NCBI GenBank assembly: GCA_020832825.1
Contig: JAJHRL010000003.1
Coordinates: 1-46,765 of the forward strand
Length of the DNA stretch: 46,765 bases
Direction: 5' to 3'
From: Candidatus Aenigmatarchaeota archaeon
GTDB taxonomy: Archaea > Aenigmatarchaeota > Aenigmatarchaeia > CG10238-14 > SpSt-28
Of the stretch, positions 5,032 to 46,765 are shown piece after piece; positions within the stretch are counted from its first letter, which is position 1; each line of letters starts with the position of its first letter. A program made the translations under genes and the position numbers. The notes under the pieces were generated by a model. It saw only the letters and a list, made by a program, of their open reading frames with translations. It was not told the origin of the DNA and did no database searches.

Positions 5032-5132
5032 GCTGGGGTCGCCTAACCTGGTAGGGCACCAGCCTGCTATAGTTCGACTATGGAAAGCTGGTGGGGTTTA
5101 TCCCCTTGCGGGTTCAAATCCCGCCCCCAGCG
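5032..5132 (+). tRNA. tRNA-Ser(GCT) with 16-nt intron at 37/38 (5070-5085)
   Basis: Acceptor GCTGGGG/CCCCAGC, G73, long variable arm GGGG-TTTAT-CCCC, anticodon stem CCAGC/GCTGG, BHB with one C-A mismatch. Confidence 0.88.
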
Positions 5133-6519: not shown

Positions 6520-7752
6520 CTATGGGTATGAAATTCTTAGCACAACTTTATATGGTTCATACATATCGTAGTTCTGAATATCTAGGTATGTAAGCGTGTA
6601 CGCACTTGTTGGCTGTGGAAAGTAAGGCCTTCTGTTTGATACACTCAAAATTAAAGAAAGTAAAGCAAGTTTTTGGTCGTGAGTCGTTTTATTCTCTCTA
6701 TCAAAATCCGCTATCCACGCTATTTTAGATGTATTTAACACTGCTACAGGAACTTTGGAAGTCGGTAAACCTTCGTAGAGAAATATTCTGTCCTCTTTCC
6801 CATCTATTAAAGTAACGTTATTACTGCCTCGAAAATCAGTAAAATTATAAATCTTCTTGAAGGAAACTGCAAAGCTTGAATTCGATAAAATATAGGAAAG
6901 GAAAAAATTGTAGTCATAAAGAGAGAAGCTCTCTCTTTCTGAAACAGAAACTATTGTTGTTGAAGTTTTAAAATAAACTTTCTTTGAAGCATAATCTATT
7001 TCAAAAGGTACAACATAGTTTCTAAAGGTGAAATTGCCGATGTAATTCCCTGTTGTAGTGTTTAGAGAAGTCGCATTAACGATAAGCGGAATATTGTAGA
7101 AAAATTTATAGGGATAATAAATGTCACTAGAAGCTGCAGAAGGTATGTTTATGTAAACATCACTGGTAACCTGTTGAGGAGAAATTTCTATACCAAAAAT
7201 TTCTTTCGTTGCACTATCTATTACAGAAGGGAAATCAGAAATTTCAATGAGACCTTTTCCTTTTGAAATGTAGTTTAAAACATTGCTCTTGTAGTCTGTC
7301 AGGTTAATGTAATTACAAATGAGCAGTAGATCTGAATATTCTGGAATGCTTGTTAAATTAACTGGAATGAAAAAAATGTTAATTACTCTTTTGTTAACAA
7401 CAAGAGAACCATACCATTCTGAAAATCTTTTTATCTTCTCTTCGCTACAATTAGCTGCAACTATTATAGCTTTCTTAAGAGTTTCTTCTGGGAAAACATC
7501 TACAATTAAAGACTGATTAGCAATGGTAGTTTTACTTAAGAATTCTTTTAAGGATACTTCAAAAAAGGAAGCATTATACAGCTTTTTGCTAAAATCGAGT
7601 GCAACTAGTATATCCCTTCCAAGTATAGCTAATGTTGCTTTTTCCCAATTATCTTGGGAAACTATAGGTTTAAAAATAAAATAAAAAGATGCAAACAAAA
7701 TGAGCAAAGCAGAAAGAACTTCAAGTGTGCTTATCTGAGCTAGTAAAGCCAT
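6520..7752 (-). CDS. Large minor pilin or adhesin-like protein of the type IV pilus operon
   Basis: N-terminus A|QISTLEVLSALLILF resembles a class III signal peptide; many N-x-S/T sequons; last gene of the operon. Confidence 0.6.
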   Translation of the reverse strand: MALLAQISTLEVLSALLILFASFYFIFKPIVSQDNWEKATLAILGRDILVALDFSKKLYNASFFEVSLKEFLSKTTIANQSLIVDVFPEETLKKAIIVAANCSEEKIKRFSEWYGSLVVNKRVINIFFIPVNLTSIPEYSDLLLICNYINLTDYKSNVLNYISKGKGLIEISDFPSVIDSATKEIFGIEISPQQVTSDVYINIPSAASSDIYYPYKFFYNIPLIVNATSLNTTTGNYIGNFTFRNYVVPFEIDYASKKVYFKTSTTIVSVSERESFSLYDYNFFLSYILSNSSFAVSFKKIYNFTDFRGSNNVTLIDGKEDRIFLYEGLPTSKVPVAVLNTSKIAWIADFDRENKTTHDQKLALLSLILSVSNRRPYFPQPTSAYTLTYLDIQNYDMYEPYKVVLRISYP

Positions 7753-8213
7753 ACAACCAGCTCTCCATAACTTCCATTATCAAAACTTACAATCCTAGAA
7801 AACTTTATCCCAGTATCTGCCCCTCGATAACAGCTCGCTATTAACTTCCCTTCTAAGTAAACAAATAGATTTATTTCATTTTTTAAGTCAAGCATTTTTT
7901 TAAACTTCTGATAATCTGAATTACAAATTGTAATTGCACTATTCACTTTAAGAAGCGAAAGAACGTTGGTTTTGTTTAAAGTTTCATTCATTAGTCCTAT
8001 CCTTTTGATTTCCCCTTCGTACCAATTAGCAGGACTGCCAACGTCATTCACAAGAAGTTCAGAAACTTGATACGCTTCTGAAAGTAAAAACATTCTTTTA
8101 ATTTCAGTAAGATAGGTAGAATAGTAAGTAAGCAGTTGATAAATGAGAAATAGTACTGCTGAAACGAAAATAGAAATGGCTGCAAATTGTTCAAAACCGA
8201 CTTGCGTCTTCAT
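7740..8213 (-). CDS. Type IV pilin-like protein
   Basis: MKT|QVGFE followed by a hydrophobic helix; GSPANW motif. Confidence 0.65.
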   Translation of the reverse strand: MKTQVGFEQFAAISIFVSAVLFLIYQLLTYYSTYLTEIKRMFLLSEAYQVSELLVNDVGSPANWYEGEIKRIGLMNETLNKTNVLSLLKVNSAITICNSDYQKFKKMLDLKNEINLFVYLEGKLIASCYRGADTGIKFSRIVSFDNGSYGELVVWLY

Positions 8214-8215
8214 TC

Positions 8216-9133
8216 TTAAACACCTATTAGACCTATTCTTGCTAAAAGCAAGTAAGATGCCATTATTATGCTTGCTAATATTAAGCAGTGTTTCAAACCA
8301 GCTCTGATAGAGCCTTCTGAAATCTGACCTGCCGCTAATCCAACAAAAATCGCTTGTATTAAAGAGAGGAAGAAGAAAATAGAAAAATAGTAAGGACTTC
8401 TGGATTTAAATCCAAAAACAGATTGTGTTAAAAGAGAGAAAAAATCGCATACGTTACATACAGCACCACTACAAGTAAGGCAAGGATCAAATAAACCCAT
8501 ACTGGTTCCTATTCCGATAAAATGTGGACTAGCAAAAATAGGTAGTAGGACTTTAGTTATCATTACTACTACTCCTAAGAAAATGAAGGAAATAACGTAC
8601 ATCATGAGAGTATACTGATTTAGTATTGATTTCCTCTCTTTTTCCATTTGTTGCAACATTTCTAACGATTCTGAAAGAGTGGTGAGAACTGCTAGCGTAT
8701 TTCCCCCTGAGATATAAGCTTCTCTCAATATTCTAAATGCTGTAGAAATCCTCTTATTCTTTCTCATCCTTTCAACAAACTTATCGAGCGCTTTATGGAT
8801 AGGAATATTCCAGCTTAATTGATTAGCAAGAAGTTTTATTTCGCTGCTTAAGCTTCCATAGTCATTTTTGCTAACAATTCTGATAGCTTGAGGTAGTGTC
8901 ACTCCGCTTCCTAGCGTTTCAGTTAAGTCACGCAAAAAAACTGGAAGTTTCTCCTCCATTTCCTTCCACTTTCTATAGTGTACGTATTCGAAAAACGCAA
9001 AGGTTGAGAAAGAAGCGAATATTGAGATGATAAGAAGATTTGCCAAAATTCCAACATCTTTTGAAAAATATCCGAGCAGAATTAGGATAGTAGAAACAAG
9101 GATAACCAATATTTTCACGTTTCTCTCATTCAT
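8216..9133 (-). CDS. Type II/IV secretion system F family platform protein (TadC/ArlJ-like)
   Basis: LPVFLRDL...SGVTLPQAI...DYGSLSSEI; multiple TM helices. Confidence 0.88.
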   Translation of the reverse strand: MNERNVKILVILVSTILILLGYFSKDVGILANLLIISIFASFSTFAFFEYVHYRKWKEMEEKLPVFLRDLTETLGSGVTLPQAIRIVSKNDYGSLSSEIKLLANQLSWNIPIHKALDKFVERMRKNKRISTAFRILREAYISGGNTLAVLTTLSESLEMLQQMEKERKSILNQYTLMMYVISFIFLGVVVMITKVLLPIFASPHFIGIGTSMGLFDPCLTCSGAVCNVCDFFSLLTQSVFGFKSRSPYYFSIFFFLSLIQAIFVGLAAGQISEGSIRAGLKHCLILASIIMASYLLLARIGLIGV

Positions 9134-9160
9134 AAGCTATATTTTTTGGCATAATTAAAT

Positions 9161-10030
9161 TTATTCCCAGAAAGGCTGAGCCCTTCGAACCATGAAGAGA
9201 AATAGAAGGGAAACTGCAGGTAAGAAAACAAAAATCATGAAGAGCTGTAGAGGTAAAATGTTTTGAAGGGTTCCAAGCGTTGAAACTATTGATGTCAAAA
9301 CAACAAAGAAAATGGTTCCAAGTATGACAGAGACTAAGTAGATTTCGGTATAGATTGTCATGCTGTGTGAAAACTCAGAAAGCTTTCTCTTGTAGTCTAA
9401 GAAAAAATCTGCAGTCTTCTCTTTGACAAAAATATAGACATTTCCACCACTTCTTATCGTCGATAAAATACCATATAAAAATTCCCTAAACTTTCTTGAT
9501 GGTGTTCTAGCTATTGCCCTTTCCAAAGCTGATAAAACATCTAGTCCGTAAAACTCGATATCATAAACAATCTTCCTAAACTCATCAACAACTGCATTTT
9601 TCTCACTAAATTCTGTAAAAGTATGAAATGCTTTATGTAAAGGTAAGCCAGAGCCAAGTATTGAGGAAAGATGGAGGGTAGAAAAGGGTAAAAAAGTGTC
9701 TATCTCCTTTTCTCTTTGCATAACAAGAGATTTGGGATACCTTATATAGATAAAGAAAACAAGAAGGGGTAACAAAGTGGCTAAAGTTACTGAAGTTAAG
9801 TAACCGAACAAGAAAGAGGCAGAAGCTAAAGATATAGAAAACGCCAGTATTGGCAATATGATTATAAACGTTAGCAAGGAAGCAAAAAACGCGTTAGCTA
9901 GGTATTCTTGAGAGGAAATTTTCAGGTTAGCTTTTTTTAAATCTTCTCTTAGCTCAGGAAAATACGGCTCTGCTTTTTTTGCCAAATCTCCAAAAAGTCT
10001 AAATGCATAGGTGGATATCATCCTACCCAC
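9161..10030 (-). CDS. Type II/IV secretion system F family platform protein (TadB/ArlJ-like)
   Basis: EIDTFLPFST...GLDVLSALERAIARTPSRKFREFLYG...SGGN. Confidence 0.88.
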   Translation of the reverse strand: MGRMISTYAFRLFGDLAKKAEPYFPELREDLKKANLKISSQEYLANAFFASLLTFIIILPILAFSISLASASFLFGYLTSVTLATLLPLLVFFIYIRYPKSLVMQREKEIDTFLPFSTLHLSSILGSGLPLHKAFHTFTEFSEKNAVVDEFRKIVYDIEFYGLDVLSALERAIARTPSRKFREFLYGILSTIRSGGNVYIFVKEKTADFFLDYKRKLSEFSHSMTIYTEIYLVSVILGTIFFVVLTSIVSTLGTLQNILPLQLFMIFVFLPAVSLLFLFMVRRAQPFWE

Positions 10031-34226: not shown

Positions 34227-34318
34227 GGGCTCGTAGCTTAGCCTGGTGGAGCACCCGCCTTATATGGCGATGCTCCTAGGAAAGCGGGGGGTCGTGGGTT
34301 CAAATCCCACCGAGCCCA
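34227..34318 (+). tRNA. tRNA-Ile(TAT) with 18-nt intron at 37/38 (34265-34282)
   Basis: Acceptor GGGCTCG/CGAGCCC plus A73, anticodon stem CCCGC/GCGGG, CT-TAT-A|A, complete BHB (CTTA:TAGG helix, TAT and AAA bulges). Confidence 0.92.
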
Positions 34319-38519: not shown

Positions 38520-38678
38520 ATGCAGAAAATTGTTGGATTTATGTTAATCTTGATTGGTCTTTCCATGATAATTTTTTTTCCATTTTTAGACAGATATCAA
38601 CCTGAAGAAATGGCCAAAACTGCTGCCTTAATTGGAGCAATACTAACTTTTGCTGGAATTTTTCTTCTCAAAAGTTAA
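38520..38678 (+). CDS. 52-aa two-TM microprotein (not in ORF track)
   Basis: Strong SD GAGGTGA then MQKIVGFMLILIGLSMIIFFPFLDRYQPEEMAKTAALIGAILTFAGIFLLKS*. Confidence 0.75.
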   Translation: MQKIVGFMLILIGLSMIIFFPFLDRYQPEEMAKTAALIGAILTFAGIFLLKS

Positions 38679-38700
38679 TATTCACAAATAAAAATTAGTT

Positions 38701-40473
38701 ATGATTGAGTATCCGCGTTATCCTGCAGATTTTCCTCCGAAGATGAGACCTGGGGAAGGAGTAAATTCAAATCCCAATGATCAAAATGAAACTTTGGTTT
38801 ATAGTGCTCCGTTAGGAGGATGTACTAAAGTTTACTACAGTCTGATGGTTTGGCTTGGAACATGGGGGTTTCAAACCTTCAAAGTTGAAGAGAGCATATT
38901 CGTTTCTCCAGTAAATAAGAATTACTATGAAATCGTGTTAGGAGAGAAAGAAAGACTGGCCCAGCAGATTAAAACTGGTTTAACAAGCATTGCTCAAGCT
39001 TATGCGGATCTTGAGCTAATTTTACATGATCTAAGAAAGTACAAAGAATATGTAAGGCTTTTCAACGAAATTGAAGAAGCAGAAAATATTTTAAAGAAAG
39101 AAAAAGATGAAAAGAAAATTGAAGAGGCGAAAAATAAGAAGATAAAGGCCTTACAAACATTAAGATCCATTTTCATAGATCAAGTTGACGTGCATACAGA
39201 TTTACCAAATGTTCCTATAGCCCTTCGCTCTATTGCTTCAAGATGGCCAACTATAATCTCAGATTTTATGAAGCTTGATAATGAAAGCAAACCAGAAGAA
39301 ATAAAATTAGATGTTTCCTATGCTGAAAAAGTTGTACTAGCTACAAAGAATAAGCTATTCTGGAGTTGGTTGGAAATGTTTAAGAATACGGTTAAACAGA
39401 GGTACGAAAGGTTAAAAGAGCTGGCTGTGGCAAGGGAAAACTCTGTAAGAGAATATAAAGAGATGCTAAAACCAATTGCAGCAAGATATAAGATGATAAA
39501 TGACATGCTTAGCTTTCCTGAAAAGAGGGGGAGAATGTATGTTCACGTTTTTAGACCAGAGGCTCAGGCTTTTTCTATAGATACTATGACTGTGTGGGCC
39601 TGGAAACCGTTTGCACCAGAGGAAAAATGGAAAGCGAGCAGGCAGCAATTTGACAAAGTACCTGCAAAACAAGCCGGTTTTACTGATGAGGAAATAGAGG
39701 AGATAAAAAAAATTCAAAAAGAGAAAGGTAAGAAGTATGTCGATGAGAATGGAATGGTAGAGGCTTTGCCAATAGAGCCTTCTATTGATGGTATTGTAAG
39801 AGAAATAGTGAGAAAAATAAATGAAGATTCGGAATATAAAAAGTTTGGAGTAAAAATTACTACGGAAGACCTTTTTGAAGCAAGAAAAAGACTTTTAGAG
39901 AGATACCGCAAACTACCTGAAGGATCTGGCGGTGTAATTTGGCCTTTTAGTCCGTATTTCGTATTTGTTGAGATTCCAATGAGAAGAACATGTCTGCTCC
40001 TGCCAGATGGTACCCAGCTTGAAAGTCTGGCTATAGAAAATTTAAGAACATATGTTAAGACTCAAAACATAATAATTGGGCACATTCTGGAGGTAATGGC
40101 AAGAGAGAAAATATTAGAGAATTACATAGGCCAACTACTAGGAGAATTTGGAATAGATAAGGAAGGGAAAGTGAAAAAAGTTGAAGAAATGTTAAAGGAG
40201 GAGTTTCCCTATATTTATGGAGAAGTTAAAAAAACAACGGAAACAAAAGAGAAAGAAAAGAAAGCTGGTGTGTTGGATTTTCTGAAGAAAATCATGGACT
40301 ATTTTGGAATTCAACTAACATTCTTAAGATCGTATGGACCTTACGAATTTAATGTAGCTTATCGATTAGCAAAACATTACTTTAAATTCTCTGGAGAAGT
40401 GTTTAAGCAAATCAAAAGTTTTCTTGACTCTTCTTTCCAAGTTCCAGGGGCCTCTGCGGAGGTTAAAATATGA
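38701..40473 (+). CDS. Large helical or coiled-coil hypothetical protein (590 aa)
   Basis: Long ORF with native codon style, no recognisable catalytic motif; ATGA overlap with next gene. Confidence 0.85.
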   Translation: MIEYPRYPADFPPKMRPGEGVNSNPNDQNETLVYSAPLGGCTKVYYSLMVWLGTWGFQTFKVEESIFVSPVNKNYYEIVLGEKERLAQQIKTGLTSIAQAYADLELILHDLRKYKEYVRLFNEIEEAENILKKEKDEKKIEEAKNKKIKALQTLRSIFIDQVDVHTDLPNVPIALRSIASRWPTIISDFMKLDNESKPEEIKLDVSYAEKVVLATKNKLFWSWLEMFKNTVKQRYERLKELAVARENSVREYKEMLKPIAARYKMINDMLSFPEKRGRMYVHVFRPEAQAFSIDTMTVWAWKPFAPEEKWKASRQQFDKVPAKQAGFTDEEIEEIKKIQKEKGKKYVDENGMVEALPIEPSIDGIVREIVRKINEDSEYKKFGVKITTEDLFEARKRLLERYRKLPEGSGGVIWPFSPYFVFVEIPMRRTCLLLPDGTQLESLAIENLRTYVKTQNIIIGHILEVMAREKILENYIGQLLGEFGIDKEGKVKKVEEMLKEEFPYIYGEVKKTTETKEKEKKAGVLDFLKKIMDYFGIQLTFLRSYGPYEFNVAYRLAKHYFKFSGEVFKQIKSFLDSSFQVPGASAEVKI

Positions 40474-42296
40474 GCTATAAAATTGGTGTTTCGAGCGGAT
40501 GGTGGAGTATTGCAAGAAGTGAGGAATTATTGGGTATAGCGAGTAAGATAGGTTCTGTTGCAACTTATGGTGTAAACTTCGTTCAAGTTGATTTTGAGAG
40601 CATAGCGGAGTTTCAAGAACCAGAGGTTATCAAAAAAATAAAGAGACTTGTGGATACTCTGCAAGTAGATTGGGGTATGCATGGGGAGATTGGAGAAATG
40701 ATGGCTCTTGAAAGCGCCCTTGAAGTTTTTTGGAAGCATAGTCATAGGAGGCTTCATCAATATTTAGATACAATCTATTTGAAATTCTGGATAGAAGGAG
40801 ATTATAGAGAATACATTCCAAAATACATCGTTTTTCATGCTTCTAATACATTGACAATAGCTATGATTGTTGAAAGATATAGATATGCTGGGCAAATGAC
40901 TGTAACACCATTTGGAGATGTTAATTGGATAGAATTCATCAATAGAAATAAAAAATTAAAGGAATGGGTTGAAAAAAGCAATTTGCTTTACTTTTTAATT
41001 GGAAAGGAGAGCGGTCTCGGTTTTGTATCTGTTGAAGACATAAAAAAGAAGATTTATGAAAAAATAGGAGAAGAGGTTATGAAAGAAGGCGAATCTCTTA
41101 AGGAAGAGTTAGAAAAGGAAGTAGAAACTCATAGGCATGCATGGGAGTTTTTCAGAGAGATTACAAAACTTAGGTTTGCAGAAGGCGCAATAACCTATGA
41201 AGACATAGCATATCTTATAGTAGCAAGATATCTTTTCGAGGAAAGGAATAATCCGAACGAGCCTCTATGGAATCTTTTCTTTCCTAACTATTCAACAGAA
41301 AATGGATGGGAAAAACTTGAAGAAGATTTGATGGGAAAGGAAGTAAAATTCTTAAATATTGAAAAGGGAGAGGTAAGATTACCTCCACAAATAGTAGCTT
41401 TAGTTGCAGCAAGATACATTCTTGGTCATTTCACAGAAAGAAATAAGGAAGAATTTATAGCAGAGGAGAAGAGACAGTTGGAAAGAATTCTACCAAAAGA
41501 CAAATTGAAAGAAATAGAGGAGAATTTCCTAAAGAAAACACCATTCGAGAAACTTGCAATATTAAACAATCTTATCTCAGAAAAAGTAGGAAAGGAGAAA
41601 AGAAAATTCATGATACTTTTTGAAAATCCTGAACTTAAAGCGGCTGGGGAAGAAGGATTACAAAGGCTTATCCACGCTGTTGACATCTACAAAATGGTTA
41701 AAGCTGCAGAAAAAATTGCTAAAGATGTGTACATAGGAATGGTTTTTGATCAGGAGCACTATTTGCACAATAACTTAGACCCAATGAACGAGATAAAAAG
41801 TCTTAAGAGCGAAGCAAGCGACTTAGGAAAGTTTCTTCTCGTTTTCCATGTCGGTGCTCCTAAACCTTATCATCCTGCTCATGAACCGATAGATATTGGT
41901 AGTGAGGCACAATTTTGGATTTACAAATATGCATACGAACTTAGAAAACTTGGATTTGGAGTGGGAGAAAATGAAGGAATTTTTATTTTTGAGAGAGGCG
42001 GAGCCAGAGGACAAACTCCAGCTCAATTTATAGGTCAATCGGCTGCTGCACTAAGAATTATTGTTGAATATCTAGAGAAAAACGTGGAACCAGAAAAGCT
42101 TCCACCAGAATTTTATGGTATTTCCCCGAAAGAGATACTTGCTGAAGAAAGACAGCTTGCTATTATTAGAGAGCATTTCTTCGATCCGCTAAAAGGTTTG
42201 TTGCAAGTTCCTGAGGAAGAATACACATTCTTAGGAAGTAAAGCCATAGAGAAAGGGAAAAGACCTGAAGAATGGAAGAAAGAAGAGATAAGATAA
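40470..42296 (+). CDS. Endonuclease IV / xylose-isomerase-like TIM-barrel metalloenzyme with large insertion
   Basis: Ordered ligands H71 (GMHG), H123 (VFHAS), E385 (FENP), D427/H430 (FDQEH), H460, H471, E508 (IFERG). Confidence 0.78.
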   Translation: MSYKIGVSSGWWSIARSEELLGIASKIGSVATYGVNFVQVDFESIAEFQEPEVIKKIKRLVDTLQVDWGMHGEIGEMMALESALEVFWKHSHRRLHQYLDTIYLKFWIEGDYREYIPKYIVFHASNTLTIAMIVERYRYAGQMTVTPFGDVNWIEFINRNKKLKEWVEKSNLLYFLIGKESGLGFVSVEDIKKKIYEKIGEEVMKEGESLKEELEKEVETHRHAWEFFREITKLRFAEGAITYEDIAYLIVARYLFEERNNPNEPLWNLFFPNYSTENGWEKLEEDLMGKEVKFLNIEKGEVRLPPQIVALVAARYILGHFTERNKEEFIAEEKRQLERILPKDKLKEIEENFLKKTPFEKLAILNNLISEKVGKEKRKFMILFENPELKAAGEEGLQRLIHAVDIYKMVKAAEKIAKDVYIGMVFDQEHYLHNNLDPMNEIKSLKSEASDLGKFLLVFHVGAPKPYHPAHEPIDIGSEAQFWIYKYAYELRKLGFGVGENEGIFIFERGGARGQTPAQFIGQSAAALRIIVEYLEKNVEPEKLPPEFYGISPKEILAEERQLAIIREHFFDPLKGLLQVPEEEYTFLGSKAIEKGKRPEEWKKEEIR

Positions 42297-42324: not shown

Positions 42325-43152
42325 ATGATTGAAAAGCTGGAAAAAGAATTAGAAAATGTTAAGCTTGTAAAGAAAGACGAAATAGAGGAAAGGAAAAATT
42401 TCTTAATCGAAAAAAGTGTGAAGCTAATGAATGAAGTTAGAAAAAAATTTGGAGAAATAGTTAAATCTGTTTTAATATTTGGCTCCGTTGCGAGAGGCGA
42501 CCTTAAGCCAACTTCAGATGCTGACGTATGGATAATACTCGATGATACTCTTTCAAAGACATCTGTAGATCTAGAAAGAGTGAAAGAAGAGATAGTAAGC
42601 ATGGCAGAAAGTCTGAAGGATTTACATGTACAAACTACATATCTAACTGAATTCTGGCAGTGGGTTAGGGCAGGTTCACCAGAATTGGTGAATTTCCTAA
42701 GATATGGCCTAGTTCTTTACGATACAGGATTTGTAAAACCTGTACAGCGCATGCTTCAACTTGGATTACTTCCTCCTAGTGAAGAAGTCATTAAATTAAA
42801 GCAAAAAACCTCGGAAATAAGACTAGAAAGGATAAAAGGAGATTTGAAAAACCTGGTTTTTGATTTGAGGTATTGCGCGAGCGATATGATACAAGCTGTT
42901 GTTATGTACTATTATAAAACTCAGCCGGATCCAAAAGACATTCCTAAGTATTTGGAAAAAATGATAGAAGAAGGTAAAATAGAGAAAGAGATCCTAGAAA
43001 AGTGGAAAGAGATTGATAAGCTATGGAAAGATGTAGACCATCAAATTGTCAAGGAAGTTGATGGAGAGTATGTTCAAAAAACTTTGAAATTAACACAAGA
43101 AATAGTTGAAAGAATGAAGAAATTGCTTCCTCAAGAAATATTGGAGGTGTAA
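42325..43152 (+). CDS. Pol-beta-type nucleotidyltransferase fused to HEPN-like domain (paralog 1)
   Basis: FGSVARGD...SDADV; helical C-domain with WKDVDH. Confidence 0.85.
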   Translation: MIEKLEKELENVKLVKKDEIEERKNFLIEKSVKLMNEVRKKFGEIVKSVLIFGSVARGDLKPTSDADVWIILDDTLSKTSVDLERVKEEIVSMAESLKDLHVQTTYLTEFWQWVRAGSPELVNFLRYGLVLYDTGFVKPVQRMLQLGLLPPSEEVIKLKQKTSEIRLERIKGDLKNLVFDLRYCASDMIQAVVMYYYKTQPDPKDIPKYLEKMIEEGKIEKEILEKWKEIDKLWKDVDHQIVKEVDGEYVQKTLKLTQEIVERMKKLLPQEILEV

Positions 43153-43155
43153 AAA

Positions 43156-44289
43156 GTGAATGAAAGAGAGAAAAGAATGCAAGAGGCAAGAGAGTTTGCA
43201 AAGAGGGCATTAGAAAAATATGGCAACCTGATAAAATCTATTGTCTTGATGGGCTCGCTTGCTAGAGGAGAATTTAAGCCAGAAAGTGATATAGACATAA
43301 TAGTAATATTAGATGATACGCTAGAAGAGTTAAGCGAACAAAAATTAGAAGCGATAGATGATGATTTGGAAAAAATAGCAAAAAGTATTTCAGATAGACT
43401 ATCAATTCAACCATCTTACACTTTAACTGAGTTTGTTGATTATGCAAAATCTGGTCATCCCATAGTTTACAATTTCATCAAAGAGGGGGAACCTCTTTTT
43501 GATTCTGGCTTCTTCATGCCATGGAAAAGACTACTTAAACTTGGAAAGATTCAGGGGACGAGGGAAGCAATAGAGAATTATATGGAAGATGCTCCAAAAA
43601 AGTTAGCTAGGGCAAAAACTGTAAAATTGTTAATGCTTGCCGAAGATTGCTATTACGCTATGGTAAACTCAACCCAAGCTGTTCTAATGTTCATGGGTTT
43701 GGAACCACCTGTACCAAGTAAGTTGTATGACGAAGTAATGGAATATCTCGTTAAGCCTGGTCTTTTAGAAGAAGAATATGCAAAATGGTTGAAAGAAATT
43801 GTTCAAATAAGAAAAGACATAGAACATAAAAAACTTTTGGATGTTAAAGGAGAATTTGTAGATCAATGGATTGAAAGAGCGGAAAAATATGTTGAAAAAA
43901 TGTTTAACTTGCTTAATGCGCTTGAGATAAGAAAGAAAGAGAAGATTCTTGAAAGAACGCATGAGGTTATGATTAAAGCTGCAGCAACGGCCATAAAAGC
44001 CTTACATAAGTTGCCAGAAAACATGCAAATAGATGAATTGGAAAAACATCTAGGAATTAGTATAAGAGATGCTTTTAAAAGAGACTTCATAGATTCAAAA
44101 AGAATTGAAGGATATTACTTTGACATTTGGAAAAGAATTGAAGAATTGAAGAAAGAAGTTATAGATGAAAAGAAATTGGAGAAGTTAAAAGGAAATGAAG
44201 TAGAGCAATTGAGAGAATATGTAAGAAAGCTTATTCATGAGCTCTCTAGAGCTTTGAAAGAAGAAAGGAAAAACATTGAACAAAGCTAA
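43156..44289 (+). CDS. Pol-beta-type nucleotidyltransferase fused to HEPN plus second HEPN-like repeat (paralog 2)
   Basis: MGSLARGE...SDIDI; CYYAM and RKDIEH (Rx4H); GTG start with SD GGAGGTG. Confidence 0.87.
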   Translation: MNEREKRMQEAREFAKRALEKYGNLIKSIVLMGSLARGEFKPESDIDIIVILDDTLEELSEQKLEAIDDDLEKIAKSISDRLSIQPSYTLTEFVDYAKSGHPIVYNFIKEGEPLFDSGFFMPWKRLLKLGKIQGTREAIENYMEDAPKKLARAKTVKLLMLAEDCYYAMVNSTQAVLMFMGLEPPVPSKLYDEVMEYLVKPGLLEEEYAKWLKEIVQIRKDIEHKKLLDVKGEFVDQWIERAEKYVEKMFNLLNALEIRKKEKILERTHEVMIKAAATAIKALHKLPENMQIDELEKHLGISIRDAFKRDFIDSKRIEGYYFDIWKRIEELKKEVIDEKKLEKLKGNEVEQLREYVRKLIHELSRALKEERKNIEQS

Positions 44290-45398: not shown

Positions 45399-45498
45399 AG
45401 CCCTGGGAGGGATTTGAACCCTCAACCCCCCGCTAGCTTGCTATCATCAATCAAACTAGCGATACAAGGCGGGTGCTCTACCGTTGAGCTACCAGGGC
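45399..45498 (-). tRNA. tRNA-Thr(TGT) with 28-nt intron at 37/38 (45435-45462)
   Basis: Acceptor GCCCTGG/CCAGGGC plus U73, CCCGC-CT-TGT-A|A-GCGGG, BHB central helix CTTG:CAAG. Confidence 0.92.
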
Positions 45499-45539: not shown

Positions 45540-46765
45540 TTAAGTAATCTCTATAATCTGAGCATAACCATCCGCACTTTTATCTCTTTCCAATTTATAT
45601 GCTTTTCCTGTAACTGCTTCTTGCAATCTTTCATCATGAGTTATAATAAAAACTTGATCCATAAATTCAGAAACATTCTCTCTCAAAACTTTTGCTAATT
45701 CTTCTACAGCCTTTTGGTCTAAGTTATGAGTTGGTTCATCTAGAATTAAAATTCTTAATTGAGGGGCCAAGGCCAAAGAAAAAGCAATTCTCAAAGCTAA
45801 ACAAGCTAAGCTTCTTTCCCCCCCAGAAGCTATTCCCTCTACATTTACCCATTTTCCGCTTCTTTCCTGCAATTGCAGAACATAGTCTCCTTCTTCAATT
45901 TTTAAGGCAAGAGAAACATAGTCGCCGTAAGGGTAAAGGTTTGACCATATGCTTGCCATGTAATGATTGACCGTTTCAACAAAATCCTCCCTAATTTTAA
46001 CTTGAGTCATTTCCAACGCCTGTTTAAGAACTTTTAAGTCAACCAAAATCTTATTTAACTTCTCAACTTGTGTTCTTTCTTTTTCCATGAACTCCAAATT
46101 TTTCTCTATCTCTTCTTTTCTCTTCGTTTCCCTTCTCACAATTTCTTCCATTCCCTTAATCTCAGTTGCAATCTCTCTTTCTACGCTAATTAATTCTACA
46201 AGCCTTTTTTCCATTTCATCCACATTCTTTCCTTCGAGCAACTTTGTTAATTCTGAAATTTTCCTCTCAATCTCTTCCTTCCTTCTTTCATATTCTTTCC
46301 TTCTTTCAATCAAATTCTCCAAATCTATAATCCTTTGCCTGATTGTTTCAAAATTAGATTTTTCCTCCAAAACCCTTCTTAATAATTCCTCTTTCTCCTT
46401 TATTTCATTCCTCAAACTTTCAATCTCTTTGATAACGCTTGCTTTGTTGTCTTCATTAATTTTTAAAGCACTCTTACTGAATTCTAGCTCTCTCAAAAGT
46501 CTCTCTTTGTCTCCAATTAAAACTTTCATCTTCTCGATTTCTTTTAACTTCGCTTTAATTTCTTCTATTTCCTTTCTCATTTCAGCTTCTTTTTTTATCA
46601 ATTTTTCTACCTCTTTTTTTCCCTCTTCTATTTCCTTCTGCTTTTTCTCTATAATCCTCTTCTTTTTATCTTCCGTTAGTCTTGTCTCACAAACAGGACA
46701 TTTGCTTTCTGCAGAAGAAAGTTGAAGTATTGCCTCTTCAGCCTTTTTAATTTCATTTCTTAGCA
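45540..46765 (-). CDS. rad50: Rad50 double-strand break repair ATPase, C-terminal half (partial, runs off window)
   Basis: Zn-hook CPVC near 46690-46700 in the same frame upstream of the ORF-track start; coiled coil; SGGER signature; ILDEPT; ITH. Confidence 0.92.
   Translation of the reverse strand, partial: LRNEIKKAEEAILQLSSAESKCPVCETRLTEDKKKRIIEKKQKEIEEGKKEVEKLIKKEAEMRKEIEEIKAKLKEIEKMKVLIGDKERLLRELEFSKSALKINEDNKASVIKEIESLRNEIKEKEELLRRVLEEKSNFETIRQRIIDLENLIERRKEYERRKEEIERKISELTKLLEGKNVDEMEKRLVELISVEREIATEIKGMEEIVRRETKRKEEIEKNLEFMEKERTQVEKLNKILVDLKVLKQALEMTQVKIREDFVETVNHYMASIWSNLYPYGDYVSLALKIEEGDYVLQLQERSGKWVNVEGIASGGERSLACLALRIAFSLALAPQLRILILDEPTHNLDQKAVEELAKVLRENVSEFMDQVFIITHDERLQEAVTGKAYKLERDKSADGYAQIIEIT

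Follow-up and report, generated by a model that had tools for sequence, protein, structure and literature searches.

What does an archaeon do with two adjacent chromosomal genes, each of which fuses a nucleotidyltransferase (NTase) to a HEPN domain? Modules made of a minimal nucleotidyltransferase (MNT) and a HEPN protein are regarded as the most abundant toxin–antitoxin systems. The two genes, here called P1 and P2, lie near the end of a stretch of 46,765 nucleotides (the window) from a Candidatus Aenigmatarchaeota archaeon (assembly GCA_020832825.1, contig JAJHRL010000003.1, positions 1 to 46,765 of the forward strand). A reading made from the sequence only had described them as a domesticated MNT-HEPN module, in which an intact and a degenerate paralog form a heterodimer that silences or tunes an RNase. 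Our proposal is that P1 and P2 are old paralogs of a vertically inherited NTase-HEPN family spread across the DPANN archaea, and that they would belong to a constitutive complex for nucleic-acid processing whose HEPN site is asymmetric; we hold it with about even confidence as a whole, and with less for its details. The source genome is of low G+C content, amounts to 703 kb in 86 contigs and is 82.5% complete. All eight sequencing runs linked to the organism, which belong to three studies, are metagenomes of DNA and come from hot springs or sediment.

Translation recovers both open reading frames on the plus strand and all the motifs that had been quoted for them. The features of the pair are as follows.

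42325–43152, + strand: P1, an NTase-HEPN fusion of 275 amino acids, with a HEPN motif lacking the Arg.
42481–42525, + strand: P1 NTase motifs, from G53-S54 to D65-x-D67, invariant in 27/27 and in 29/29 sequences.
43024–43041, + strand: P1 WKDVDH, with Trp replacing Arg; W234, K235 and H239 are invariant in 29/29.
43143–43149, + strand: GGAGGTG, Shine-Dalgarno-like, inside the 3′ end of P1 and 6 nucleotides 5′ of the P2 GTG.
43156–44289, + strand: P2, NTase-HEPN1-HEPN2, 377 amino acids, GTG start, the phylum-wide core ortholog.
43156–43542, + strand: P2 NTase domain, residues 1–129, with G33-S34, R37, D45-x-D47 and Q85.
43543–43923, + strand: P2 HEPN1, residues 130–256, with E163-D164 in helix 2 and R219-K-D-I-E-H224 ending helix 3.
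43810–43827, + strand: the P2 RKDIEH motif, from the translation.
43924–44286, + strand: P2 HEPN2, residues 257–377, an internal duplicate of HEPN1 without the Arg and the His.

P1 contains the strings GSVARG, SDADV, LHVQ, YLTEFWQ, VNFLRYG, DTGFVKP and WKDVDH, to which correspond GSLARG, SDIDI, LSIQ, YTLTEFVD, YNFIKEG, DSGFFMP and RKDIEH in P2. The two proteins are 35% identical over 233 amino acids (BLASTP, E 2e-33). Both match the Pfam NTase family NTP_transf_2 (PF01909; E 5.9e-10 for P1 and 4.2e-12 for P2), P1 passes a Pfam HEPN cut-off (23.3 bits against 22), and PF05168 and PF01934 each match 5 of 41 P2 orthologs. Judged by these likenesses, P1 and P2 are paralogous NTase-HEPN fusions, P2 having the order NTase-HEPN1-HEPN2 and P1 the order NTase-HEPN, without HEPN2. 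The P2 start follows the P1 stop after three bases, and GGAGGTG is a putative ribosome-binding site for P2. A scan for promoters and terminators gave fewer matches than shuffled sequences did, the consensus being bacterial and uninformative for an archaeon.

An AlphaFold2 model of P2, calculated from 41 orthologs, has a mean predicted local distance difference test score (pLDDT) of 87.3. In structural comparisons (VIA, the source of all Z scores given here), the NTase domain matches the minimal NTases 2rff (Z 10.8) and 8xeh_E (Z 10.1). Residues 135–257 adopt the four-helix HEPN fold, superposing on 2hsb, the HEPN protein AF_0298, with Z 17.1 and a root-mean-square deviation of 2.4 over 122 residues. 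Further HEPN matches are 1ufb (Z 14.1), 1wol (Z 13.9) and the sacsin HEPN domain (Z 13.8); the proteins named in this range of Z 13.8–14.1 are TT1696, ST0689 and sacsin HEPN.

The best matches to the protein as a whole are aminoglycoside NTases. KNTase 6nlt aligns with the first two P2 domains (Z 13.3, 225 residues), Foldseek returns KNTase 6un8 (E 2e-4), and the best PDB sequence match is again KNTase (E 3.6e-5, or 2.1e-9 with a profile). These matches bring in the main rival explanation, according to which P1 and P2 belong to a small-molecule nucleotidyltransferase of the KNTase type. P1 and P2 would then pair as in a KNTase dimer, with the HEPN-fold domain of one subunit completing the NTase site of the other, the helix-2 E-D pair and a K-x-x-E-H motif would bind or deprotonate an acceptor (a sugar or another metabolite), and there would be no RNase. 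The architecture agrees, since ANT(4′)/KNTase enzymes join a Pol-beta NTase to a helical HEPN-fold domain as P2 does, and according to passages of the HEPN census, the HEPN part of an NTase fusion usually serves to bind the substrate (PMC3710099). The sequence likeness of P2 to ANT(4′) and lincosamide NTases is, however, confined to the first ~60–80 residues of the NTase domain, and the cut-offs of the ANT families are missed about tenfold (NF033061, 33.5 bits against 350; NF012212, 27.7 against 340). Moreover, substrate-binding HEPN domains in such fusions typically lose the Rx4H motif, whereas P2, unlike the KNTase-type NTases, keeps a full HEPN catalytic signature, with an invariant Arg at the canonical catalytic position and the helix-2 acidic residue. 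We regard a KNTase-type enzyme as unlikely; two further points that bear on it, the third carboxylate of the NTase and the identity of the upstream enzyme, are taken up below.

The constitutive processing complex that we favor depends on the state of the HEPN motifs, and these were followed in alignments of 48 P2 sequences (32 from genomes with P1 and 16 from P2-only genomes) and of 29 P1 sequences (27 in one separate alignment). In all 48 P2 proteins, the NTase residues G33, S34, R37, D45, D47 and Q85 are invariant, and so are the HEPN residues E163, D164, R219, K220, E223 and H224. The sequence-only reading had staked itself on conservation of Rx4H among orthologs, and the motif bears this out. 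In the model, R219–E223 closes the helix spanning residues 206–223, H224 opens the loop before helix 232–283, and E163 and D164 sit within helix 158–179. The passages of the census that describe the fold put the Rx4-6H motif and a second acidic residue at matching helix positions (PMC3710099). Thus, HEPN1 of P2 has both the Rx4-6H motif and the helix-2 acidic residue of catalytic HEPN domains, and the Rx4-6H motif is absent from P1 and from P2 HEPN2. HEPN1 carries the complete HEPN catalytic signature, from which RNase activity is predicted.

The presence of a further HEPN-like repeat without the motif at the end of P2, which had been read from the sequence, is confirmed by profile alignment. 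Residues 257–377 align with residues 130–256 with an hhalign probability of 97.9% and E 5.8e-13 over 93 columns, and two controls, both against the NTase domain, gave 0.1–0.4%. R219 pairs with a Lys and H224 with a Glu in this alignment. HEPN2 is therefore degenerate at the two positions where HEPN1 has its Arg and His, although it keeps a conserved R353-E354-Y-V-R357 of its own. No clear structural match was found for the HEPN2 part of P2, a region that the comparison barely probed. The count proposed earlier for the locus, one intact Rx4H and two degenerate HEPN-like domains, is the correct one.

The degenerate motif of P1 is not that of a decaying gene. Across 27 P1 sequences, 38 columns are invariant, and Trp is fixed in place of the Arg, as is Phe in place of the helix-2 Glu (F179 in 28/29, followed by Asp or Glu at position 180, also in 28/29).

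The NTase domains keep their GS and DxD motifs, and the strand that usually brings the third carboxylate had been recognized in LHVQ of P1 and LSIQ of P2. In the P2 model, LSI forms strand 82–84, beside the DxD strand; position 83 is mostly Ser and Q85 is invariant, and H101 and Q103 are invariant in P1. The placement of the strand and the constancy of the Gln thus agree with the earlier assignment, and that Gln occupies the expected third-carboxylate site in both NTases is plausible on the model, the assignment itself staying provisional. P1 retains an acidic residue two positions before H101 (Asp or Glu at position 99, 29/29), and P2 is without it. A Gln at the site of the expected third carboxylate, or general base, also counts against the KNTase-type explanation.

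We next consider how the NTase might act on the HEPN domain. In HepT and FhepTA, the Tyr two residues past the motif His is the AMP acceptor, according to passages of the FhepTA paper (PMC13000451). In P2, positions 225–227 are Lys (45/48), Glu or Lys, and Leu or Ile; that is, the Tyr of Rx4HxY is absent, and P1 likewise lacks it. AMPylation of the HepT/MntA type, which had been invoked as background for the pair, is therefore unlikely as such.

The pair had been treated as standing alone. In fact, it is the 3′ end of what appears to be a conserved four-gene operon, predicted to be co-transcribed, whose first two genes encode a 590-residue protein and an enzyme resembling endonuclease IV (EndoIV).

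38701–40473, + strand: P590, the first operon gene, 590 amino acids, without a family match.
40470–42296, + strand: P608, an EndoIV-like TIM barrel (xylose-isomerase fold), 608 amino acids, whose start overlaps the P590 stop by 4 nucleotides.

Of 20 loci with wide flanks, which come from many families, 15 show the order P590-P608-(P1)-P2; all four genes occur in 49 of 80 further loci, the remainder being cut by contig ends. P608 was detected in 60 of 61 genomes. PF01261 matches 11 of 17 P608 orthologs (best E 3.8e-14), and the P608 family profile matches Thermotoga maritima endonuclease IV with E 3e-4. Residues H71, H123, E385, D427, H430 and H460 align to the H, HPG, LEN, DTCH and HLND positions of EndoIV. 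Across 17 sequences, these six, and H471 and E508 besides, vary little or not at all. An insertion of ~220 amino acids separates the second His from the Glu ligand. In the KNTase-type explanation, the TIM barrel would belong to the same pathway and isomerize or epimerize a sugar, as the primarily sugar-isomerase-fold membership of PF01261 would allow. Against it stands the alignment of P608 at six EndoIV metal ligands, four of them His, a pattern that we take to be that of the trinuclear nuclease site of EndoIV and not of sugar isomerases.

As a separate observation, the TIGR00587 (nfo) model matches another TIM-barrel gene, with an open frame of 280–293 amino acids, in all of five genomes (below the cut-off, with E 1e-12 to 1e-16; e.g., contig C15 of genome G000, 1857–2273, with equivalents in four relatives). 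On account of this weak match to a separate gene, the phylum probably has a second EndoIV-like protein besides P608.

P590 is conserved throughout the phylum, with H109, D110, R112, D160 and D163 among its invariant residues. Its AlphaFold2 model (pLDDT 85.4, predicted template modelling score 0.78) has an alpha/beta body from which a long antiparallel coiled-coil hairpin of ~190 residues extends, at about residues 73–267. P590 has no match in Pfam, NCBIfam or PADLOC; a profile search of the PDB gave nothing below E 0.49 and the ESM Atlas no usable match. For the fold, Foldseek returned none at E ≤ 0.001 and VIA only generic coiled-coil look-alikes (Z ≤ 11). Directly 5′ of P590, on the same strand, lies an open reading frame of ~52 codons (38521–38679) whose product is hydrophobic and, by eye, membrane-like.

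Of the 201 genomes of the phylum that were sampled, 197 have a P2 match at E ≤ 1e-5; among the 92 of high quality, the number is 91. The match is at E ≤ 1e-45 in 192 of the 201, and orthologs from other orders are full length and 37–47% identical. Three of the four P2-negative genomes hold P590, at a contig end in two of them, so gaps in the assembly probably account for these three absences. The fourth, G004, is 94% complete and lacks P2, P1, P590 and P608 together; it is also the single exception in the count of P608. P1-type orthologs (E ≤ 4e-61) are nearly confined to the window's order, where 66 of 67 genomes have one; of the 134 others only 2 do, both of one family (f21). P1 always lies directly upstream of P2. 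In a maximum-likelihood tree, all P1 sequences form one clade and all P2 sequences another (SH-aLRT support, from the Shimodaira–Hasegawa-like approximate likelihood ratio test, of 99 and 96, respectively). With the root set by assumption on the second-locus pairs described below, P1 comes out as sister to all P2.

It follows that the asymmetry does not need the pairing of P1 with P2, in which the sequence-only reading had placed it. P2 stands without P1 in most orders, with HEPN1 and the degenerate HEPN2 in one chain; the asymmetry is thus built into P2, and P1 is an addition. A prediction of the P1–P2 complex scored 0.28 and 0.17 against a mark of 0.32, without controls, and is neutral on binding.

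The neighbors of the pair are housekeeping genes, namely those for alanyl-tRNA synthetase, an Obg-like GTPase, Rad50, a sugar nucleotidyltransferase and tRNAs, and a tblastn search with P2 found no match among 72,556 plasmid or 50,697 phage records. The well-supported conclusion is that P2 is a near-universal, vertically inherited core gene of the phylum, and the word 'domesticated' that had been applied to the pair suits it. Near-universality, vertical inheritance, a fixed operon, housekeeping neighbors and the lack of a plasmid or phage match argue that P1 and P2 are not a selfish toxin–antitoxin system.

The distribution bears most directly on a second rival explanation, a fused type VII toxin–antitoxin or defense module like FhepTA. 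Here, the NTase would oligo-AMPylate the HEPN RNase and block it sterically until stress or infection set it free to stop growth, and P1 would be a decoy or an extra antitoxin. FhepTA is a fused MNT-HEPN toxin–antitoxin of Shewanella prophages, 276 amino acids long, and the passages describing it give the domain order seen in P2, an N-terminal MNT with GS and DxD followed by a C-terminal HEPN with R-x4-H, and a HEPN activity regulated by dimerization (PMC13000451). P2 has the MNT GS...DxD motif of type VII systems, matches the NCBIfam MntA antitoxin model weakly (E 3.9e-7, 29.9 bits against a cut-off of 60) and the PADLOC candidate model PDC-S09 in its NTase domain only (E 2.9e-14), and has a HepT structure, 5yep_B, among its HEPN matches (Z 11.7). 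The patchy, mobile-element-linked distribution of type VII systems is not seen. FhepTA, as its description has it, resides on mobile elements and carries the acceptor Tyr, whereas P2 is a chromosomal core gene without that Tyr, with an extra degenerate HEPN domain and with fixed operon partners, two of them large genes foreign to toxin–antitoxin systems. Taken with the near-universal, vertical distribution, the housekeeping neighbors and the absence of P2 from the plasmid and phage records, these differences make a FhepTA-like module highly improbable.

The family reaches beyond the phylum. A profile search with P2 through 1.84 billion cluster representatives gave 268 matches at E ≤ 1e-30. Many are 500–670 amino acids long, with an N-terminal extension preceding a full-length P2-like part, and 2 of 10 representatives examined are labelled Woesearchaeota archaeon and DPANN group archaeon. 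The extensions of these long DPANN forms have no Pfam domain, apart from three proteins of more than 1000 amino acids with tetratricopeptide repeats (TPR). In the latter (P0279, P0316 and P0338; 1083–1220 amino acids), the TPR repeats are N-terminal and a P2-like NTase-HEPN part is C-terminal. In a search for loci with P2, the 80 retained were all archaeal, Aenigmatarchaeota where named, with one titled Thermoplasmata; the patterns are family-specific.

In other orders, a second tandem NTase-HEPN pair is present at another locus.

L134, 1664–3530: second tandem pair.
L135, 1510–3488: second tandem pair.
L136, 1353–3204: second tandem pair.
L137, 1299–2731: second tandem pair.

The long member (251–370 amino acids) keeps GS and/or DxD and has no Arg in its HEPN motif; in the short member (224–288 amino acids), both GS and DxD are gone and the HEPN motif is WKDVEH, WKDYDH, MKAVEH or YKEIEH. 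As the second pairs are without the Arg, each genome examined has one Arg-bearing copy accompanied by Arg-less paralogs. The only NTase-HEPN paralogs seen in the window's own genome are P1 and P2.

We propose that P2 is the core enzyme, a Pol-beta-type NTase joined to a HEPN1 domain with a helix-2 acidic pair and R-K-x-x-E-H. P590, P608, P1 and P2 would form a constitutive complex that cuts and trims nucleic-acid ends, most likely those of RNA. HEPN1 would contribute the sole complete Arg/His set, and HEPN2, or P1 where present, would complete an asymmetric site as the non-catalytic HEPN face. The EndoIV-like P608, as a metallo-phosphodiesterase, would process the resulting 3′ ends. The NTase domains might bind a nucleoside triphosphate (NTP), which would either control the complex or supply a nucleotide for transfer to a partner or to an RNA end. 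Cas13, in which two HEPN domains of one polypeptide make a composite site, offers an analogy and no more, because only one P2 HEPN keeps the Arg and the His and P2 appears to have no CRISPR RNA-binding part.

It is tempting to go further and to see in the operon a previously unrecognized, DPANN-wide and essential RNA cut-heal-tail machine, a suggestion that we consider distinctly unlikely. A single-Arg HEPN site, of HEPN1 with HEPN2 or P1, would cleave a specific cellular or host-derived RNA; P608 would remove the 2′,3′-cyclic or 3′-phosphate end; the Gln-type NTase would add nucleotides to that end or sense NTP; and the coiled-coil P590 would be the scaffold. In nucleotide-scavenging symbionts, such a machine might repair RNA or control its quality, or it might help to salvage nucleic acids imported from the host. 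A separate candidate role, that of a substitute for the CCA-adding enzyme, was rejected, TIGR03671 scoring above its cut-off in 60 of 61 genomes, the window's own included.

Several observations weigh against a catalytic processing complex. The first is found in the wider family, for which residues were counted in the best 150 representatives, with the sequences spanning each motif as denominators.

G33: P2 residue in 129/130 family representatives.
S34: P2 residue in 123/130.
D45: P2 residue in 128/130.
D47: P2 residue in 128/130.
Q85: P2 residue in 84/130.
R219: P2 residue in 67/145.
K220: P2 residue in 127/145.
E223: P2 residue in 105/145.
H224: P2 residue in 101/145.

Since Lys, Glu and His outnumber Arg, the family core is K-x-x-E-H and not Rx4H, and such a core could serve something besides RNA cleavage. 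That Lys, Glu and His are steadier than Arg is also what a KNTase-type enzyme would lead one to expect. Secondly, the residue after the Arg is typically the polar Asn, Asp or His in HEPN RNases, as passages of the census describe them (PMC3710099), and it is Lys in 48/48 P2 and in 29/29 P1 sequences. Thirdly, both NTase domains may be poor catalysts or inactive, given the Gln at the expected third-carboxylate position. As for P608, TIGR00587 does not report it at E ≤ 0.01, and its fold also includes sugar isomerases. The operon is broken in some lineages; genome G005 has P2, P608 and P590 on three contigs. Finally, the P1 stem in the tree is long (1.07), and with the root assumed, P1 may be either an ancient gene that was lost many times or a younger one that evolves fast.

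The same counts are relevant to a third rival explanation, a regulator without catalysis, in which the NTase would sense NTP and the HEPN domains would bind RNA or DNA, together guiding or regulating the EndoIV-like enzyme. Many family members are without the Arg, no P1 or P2 sequence departs from the Gln at the expected third site, a residue also common in the family, and non-catalytic HEPN roles are noted in passages of the census (PMC3710099). Opposed to this is the full invariance of GS, DxD, E163/D164, R219 and H224 among the P2 orthologs, which is the pattern of an active site and not that of a binding surface. A purely regulatory role seems to us very unlikely, and the processing complex remains the reading that we prefer.

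The family is not altogether new to the literature. A 2019 survey of archaeal 'dark matter' lists, in the passages that concern DPANN, a cluster of MNT fused to HEPN in a housekeeping context, cls.004259 (representative NEQ050), present in 36 of 67 DPANN genomes, and names it as a priority (PMC6393860). The likeness extends to the MNT-HEPN arrangement in one protein, conservation in DPANN, housekeeping surroundings and the lack of an assigned function in those passages. By this description, the P1/P2 family seems to match cls.004259. The same passages of the survey do not mention the HEPN2 repeat, the Arg-to-Trp paralog, the tandem pair or an operon shared with P590 and an EndoIV-like enzyme (PMC6393860). 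A literature search for an Aenigmarchaeota or DPANN HEPN-nucleotidyltransferase found no functional study of the family, and the matches to NEQ050 (best 10 of 16) were DOI coincidences. As far as these searches reach, the three-domain anatomy, the fixed Arg-to-Trp paralog, the long and short pairs and the operon with P608 and P590 are apparently new.

These features, namely the third, degenerate HEPN domain, the Arg-to-Trp paralog, the long and short pairs and the fixed operon partners, give the family a testable structure. A fusion with a complete HEPN signature behaves here as a core gene, although such domains, when joined to NTases, are mostly regarded as inactive substrate binders. Should the ends of RNA prove to be what the complex acts on, this would be a new housekeeping use of a scaffold known from conflict systems, and it could offer a clue to nucleic-acid handling in genome-reduced symbiotic archaea.

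Some minor observations concern the surroundings. In G005, P608 (2171–3904 of contig C11) lies ~3.4 kb from a second NTase-HEPN pair (7312–9284), with P2 and P590 elsewhere, so the link between P608 and NTase-HEPN genes may survive rearrangement. In the window, a Rad50-type ABC ATPase gene (45540–46763, − strand) runs past the window end; its product has a zinc-hook CxxC (Pfam Rad50_zn_hook, E 7.2e-8). The gene is convergent with the operon, a tRNA and the sugar nucleotidyltransferase gene lying between them. The window has three tRNA genes by Rfam (5032–5132, 34227–34318 and 45399–45498). ARAGORN finds one of the three, leaving its anticodon undetermined, and their lengths of 92–101 nucleotides make introns probable in all three.

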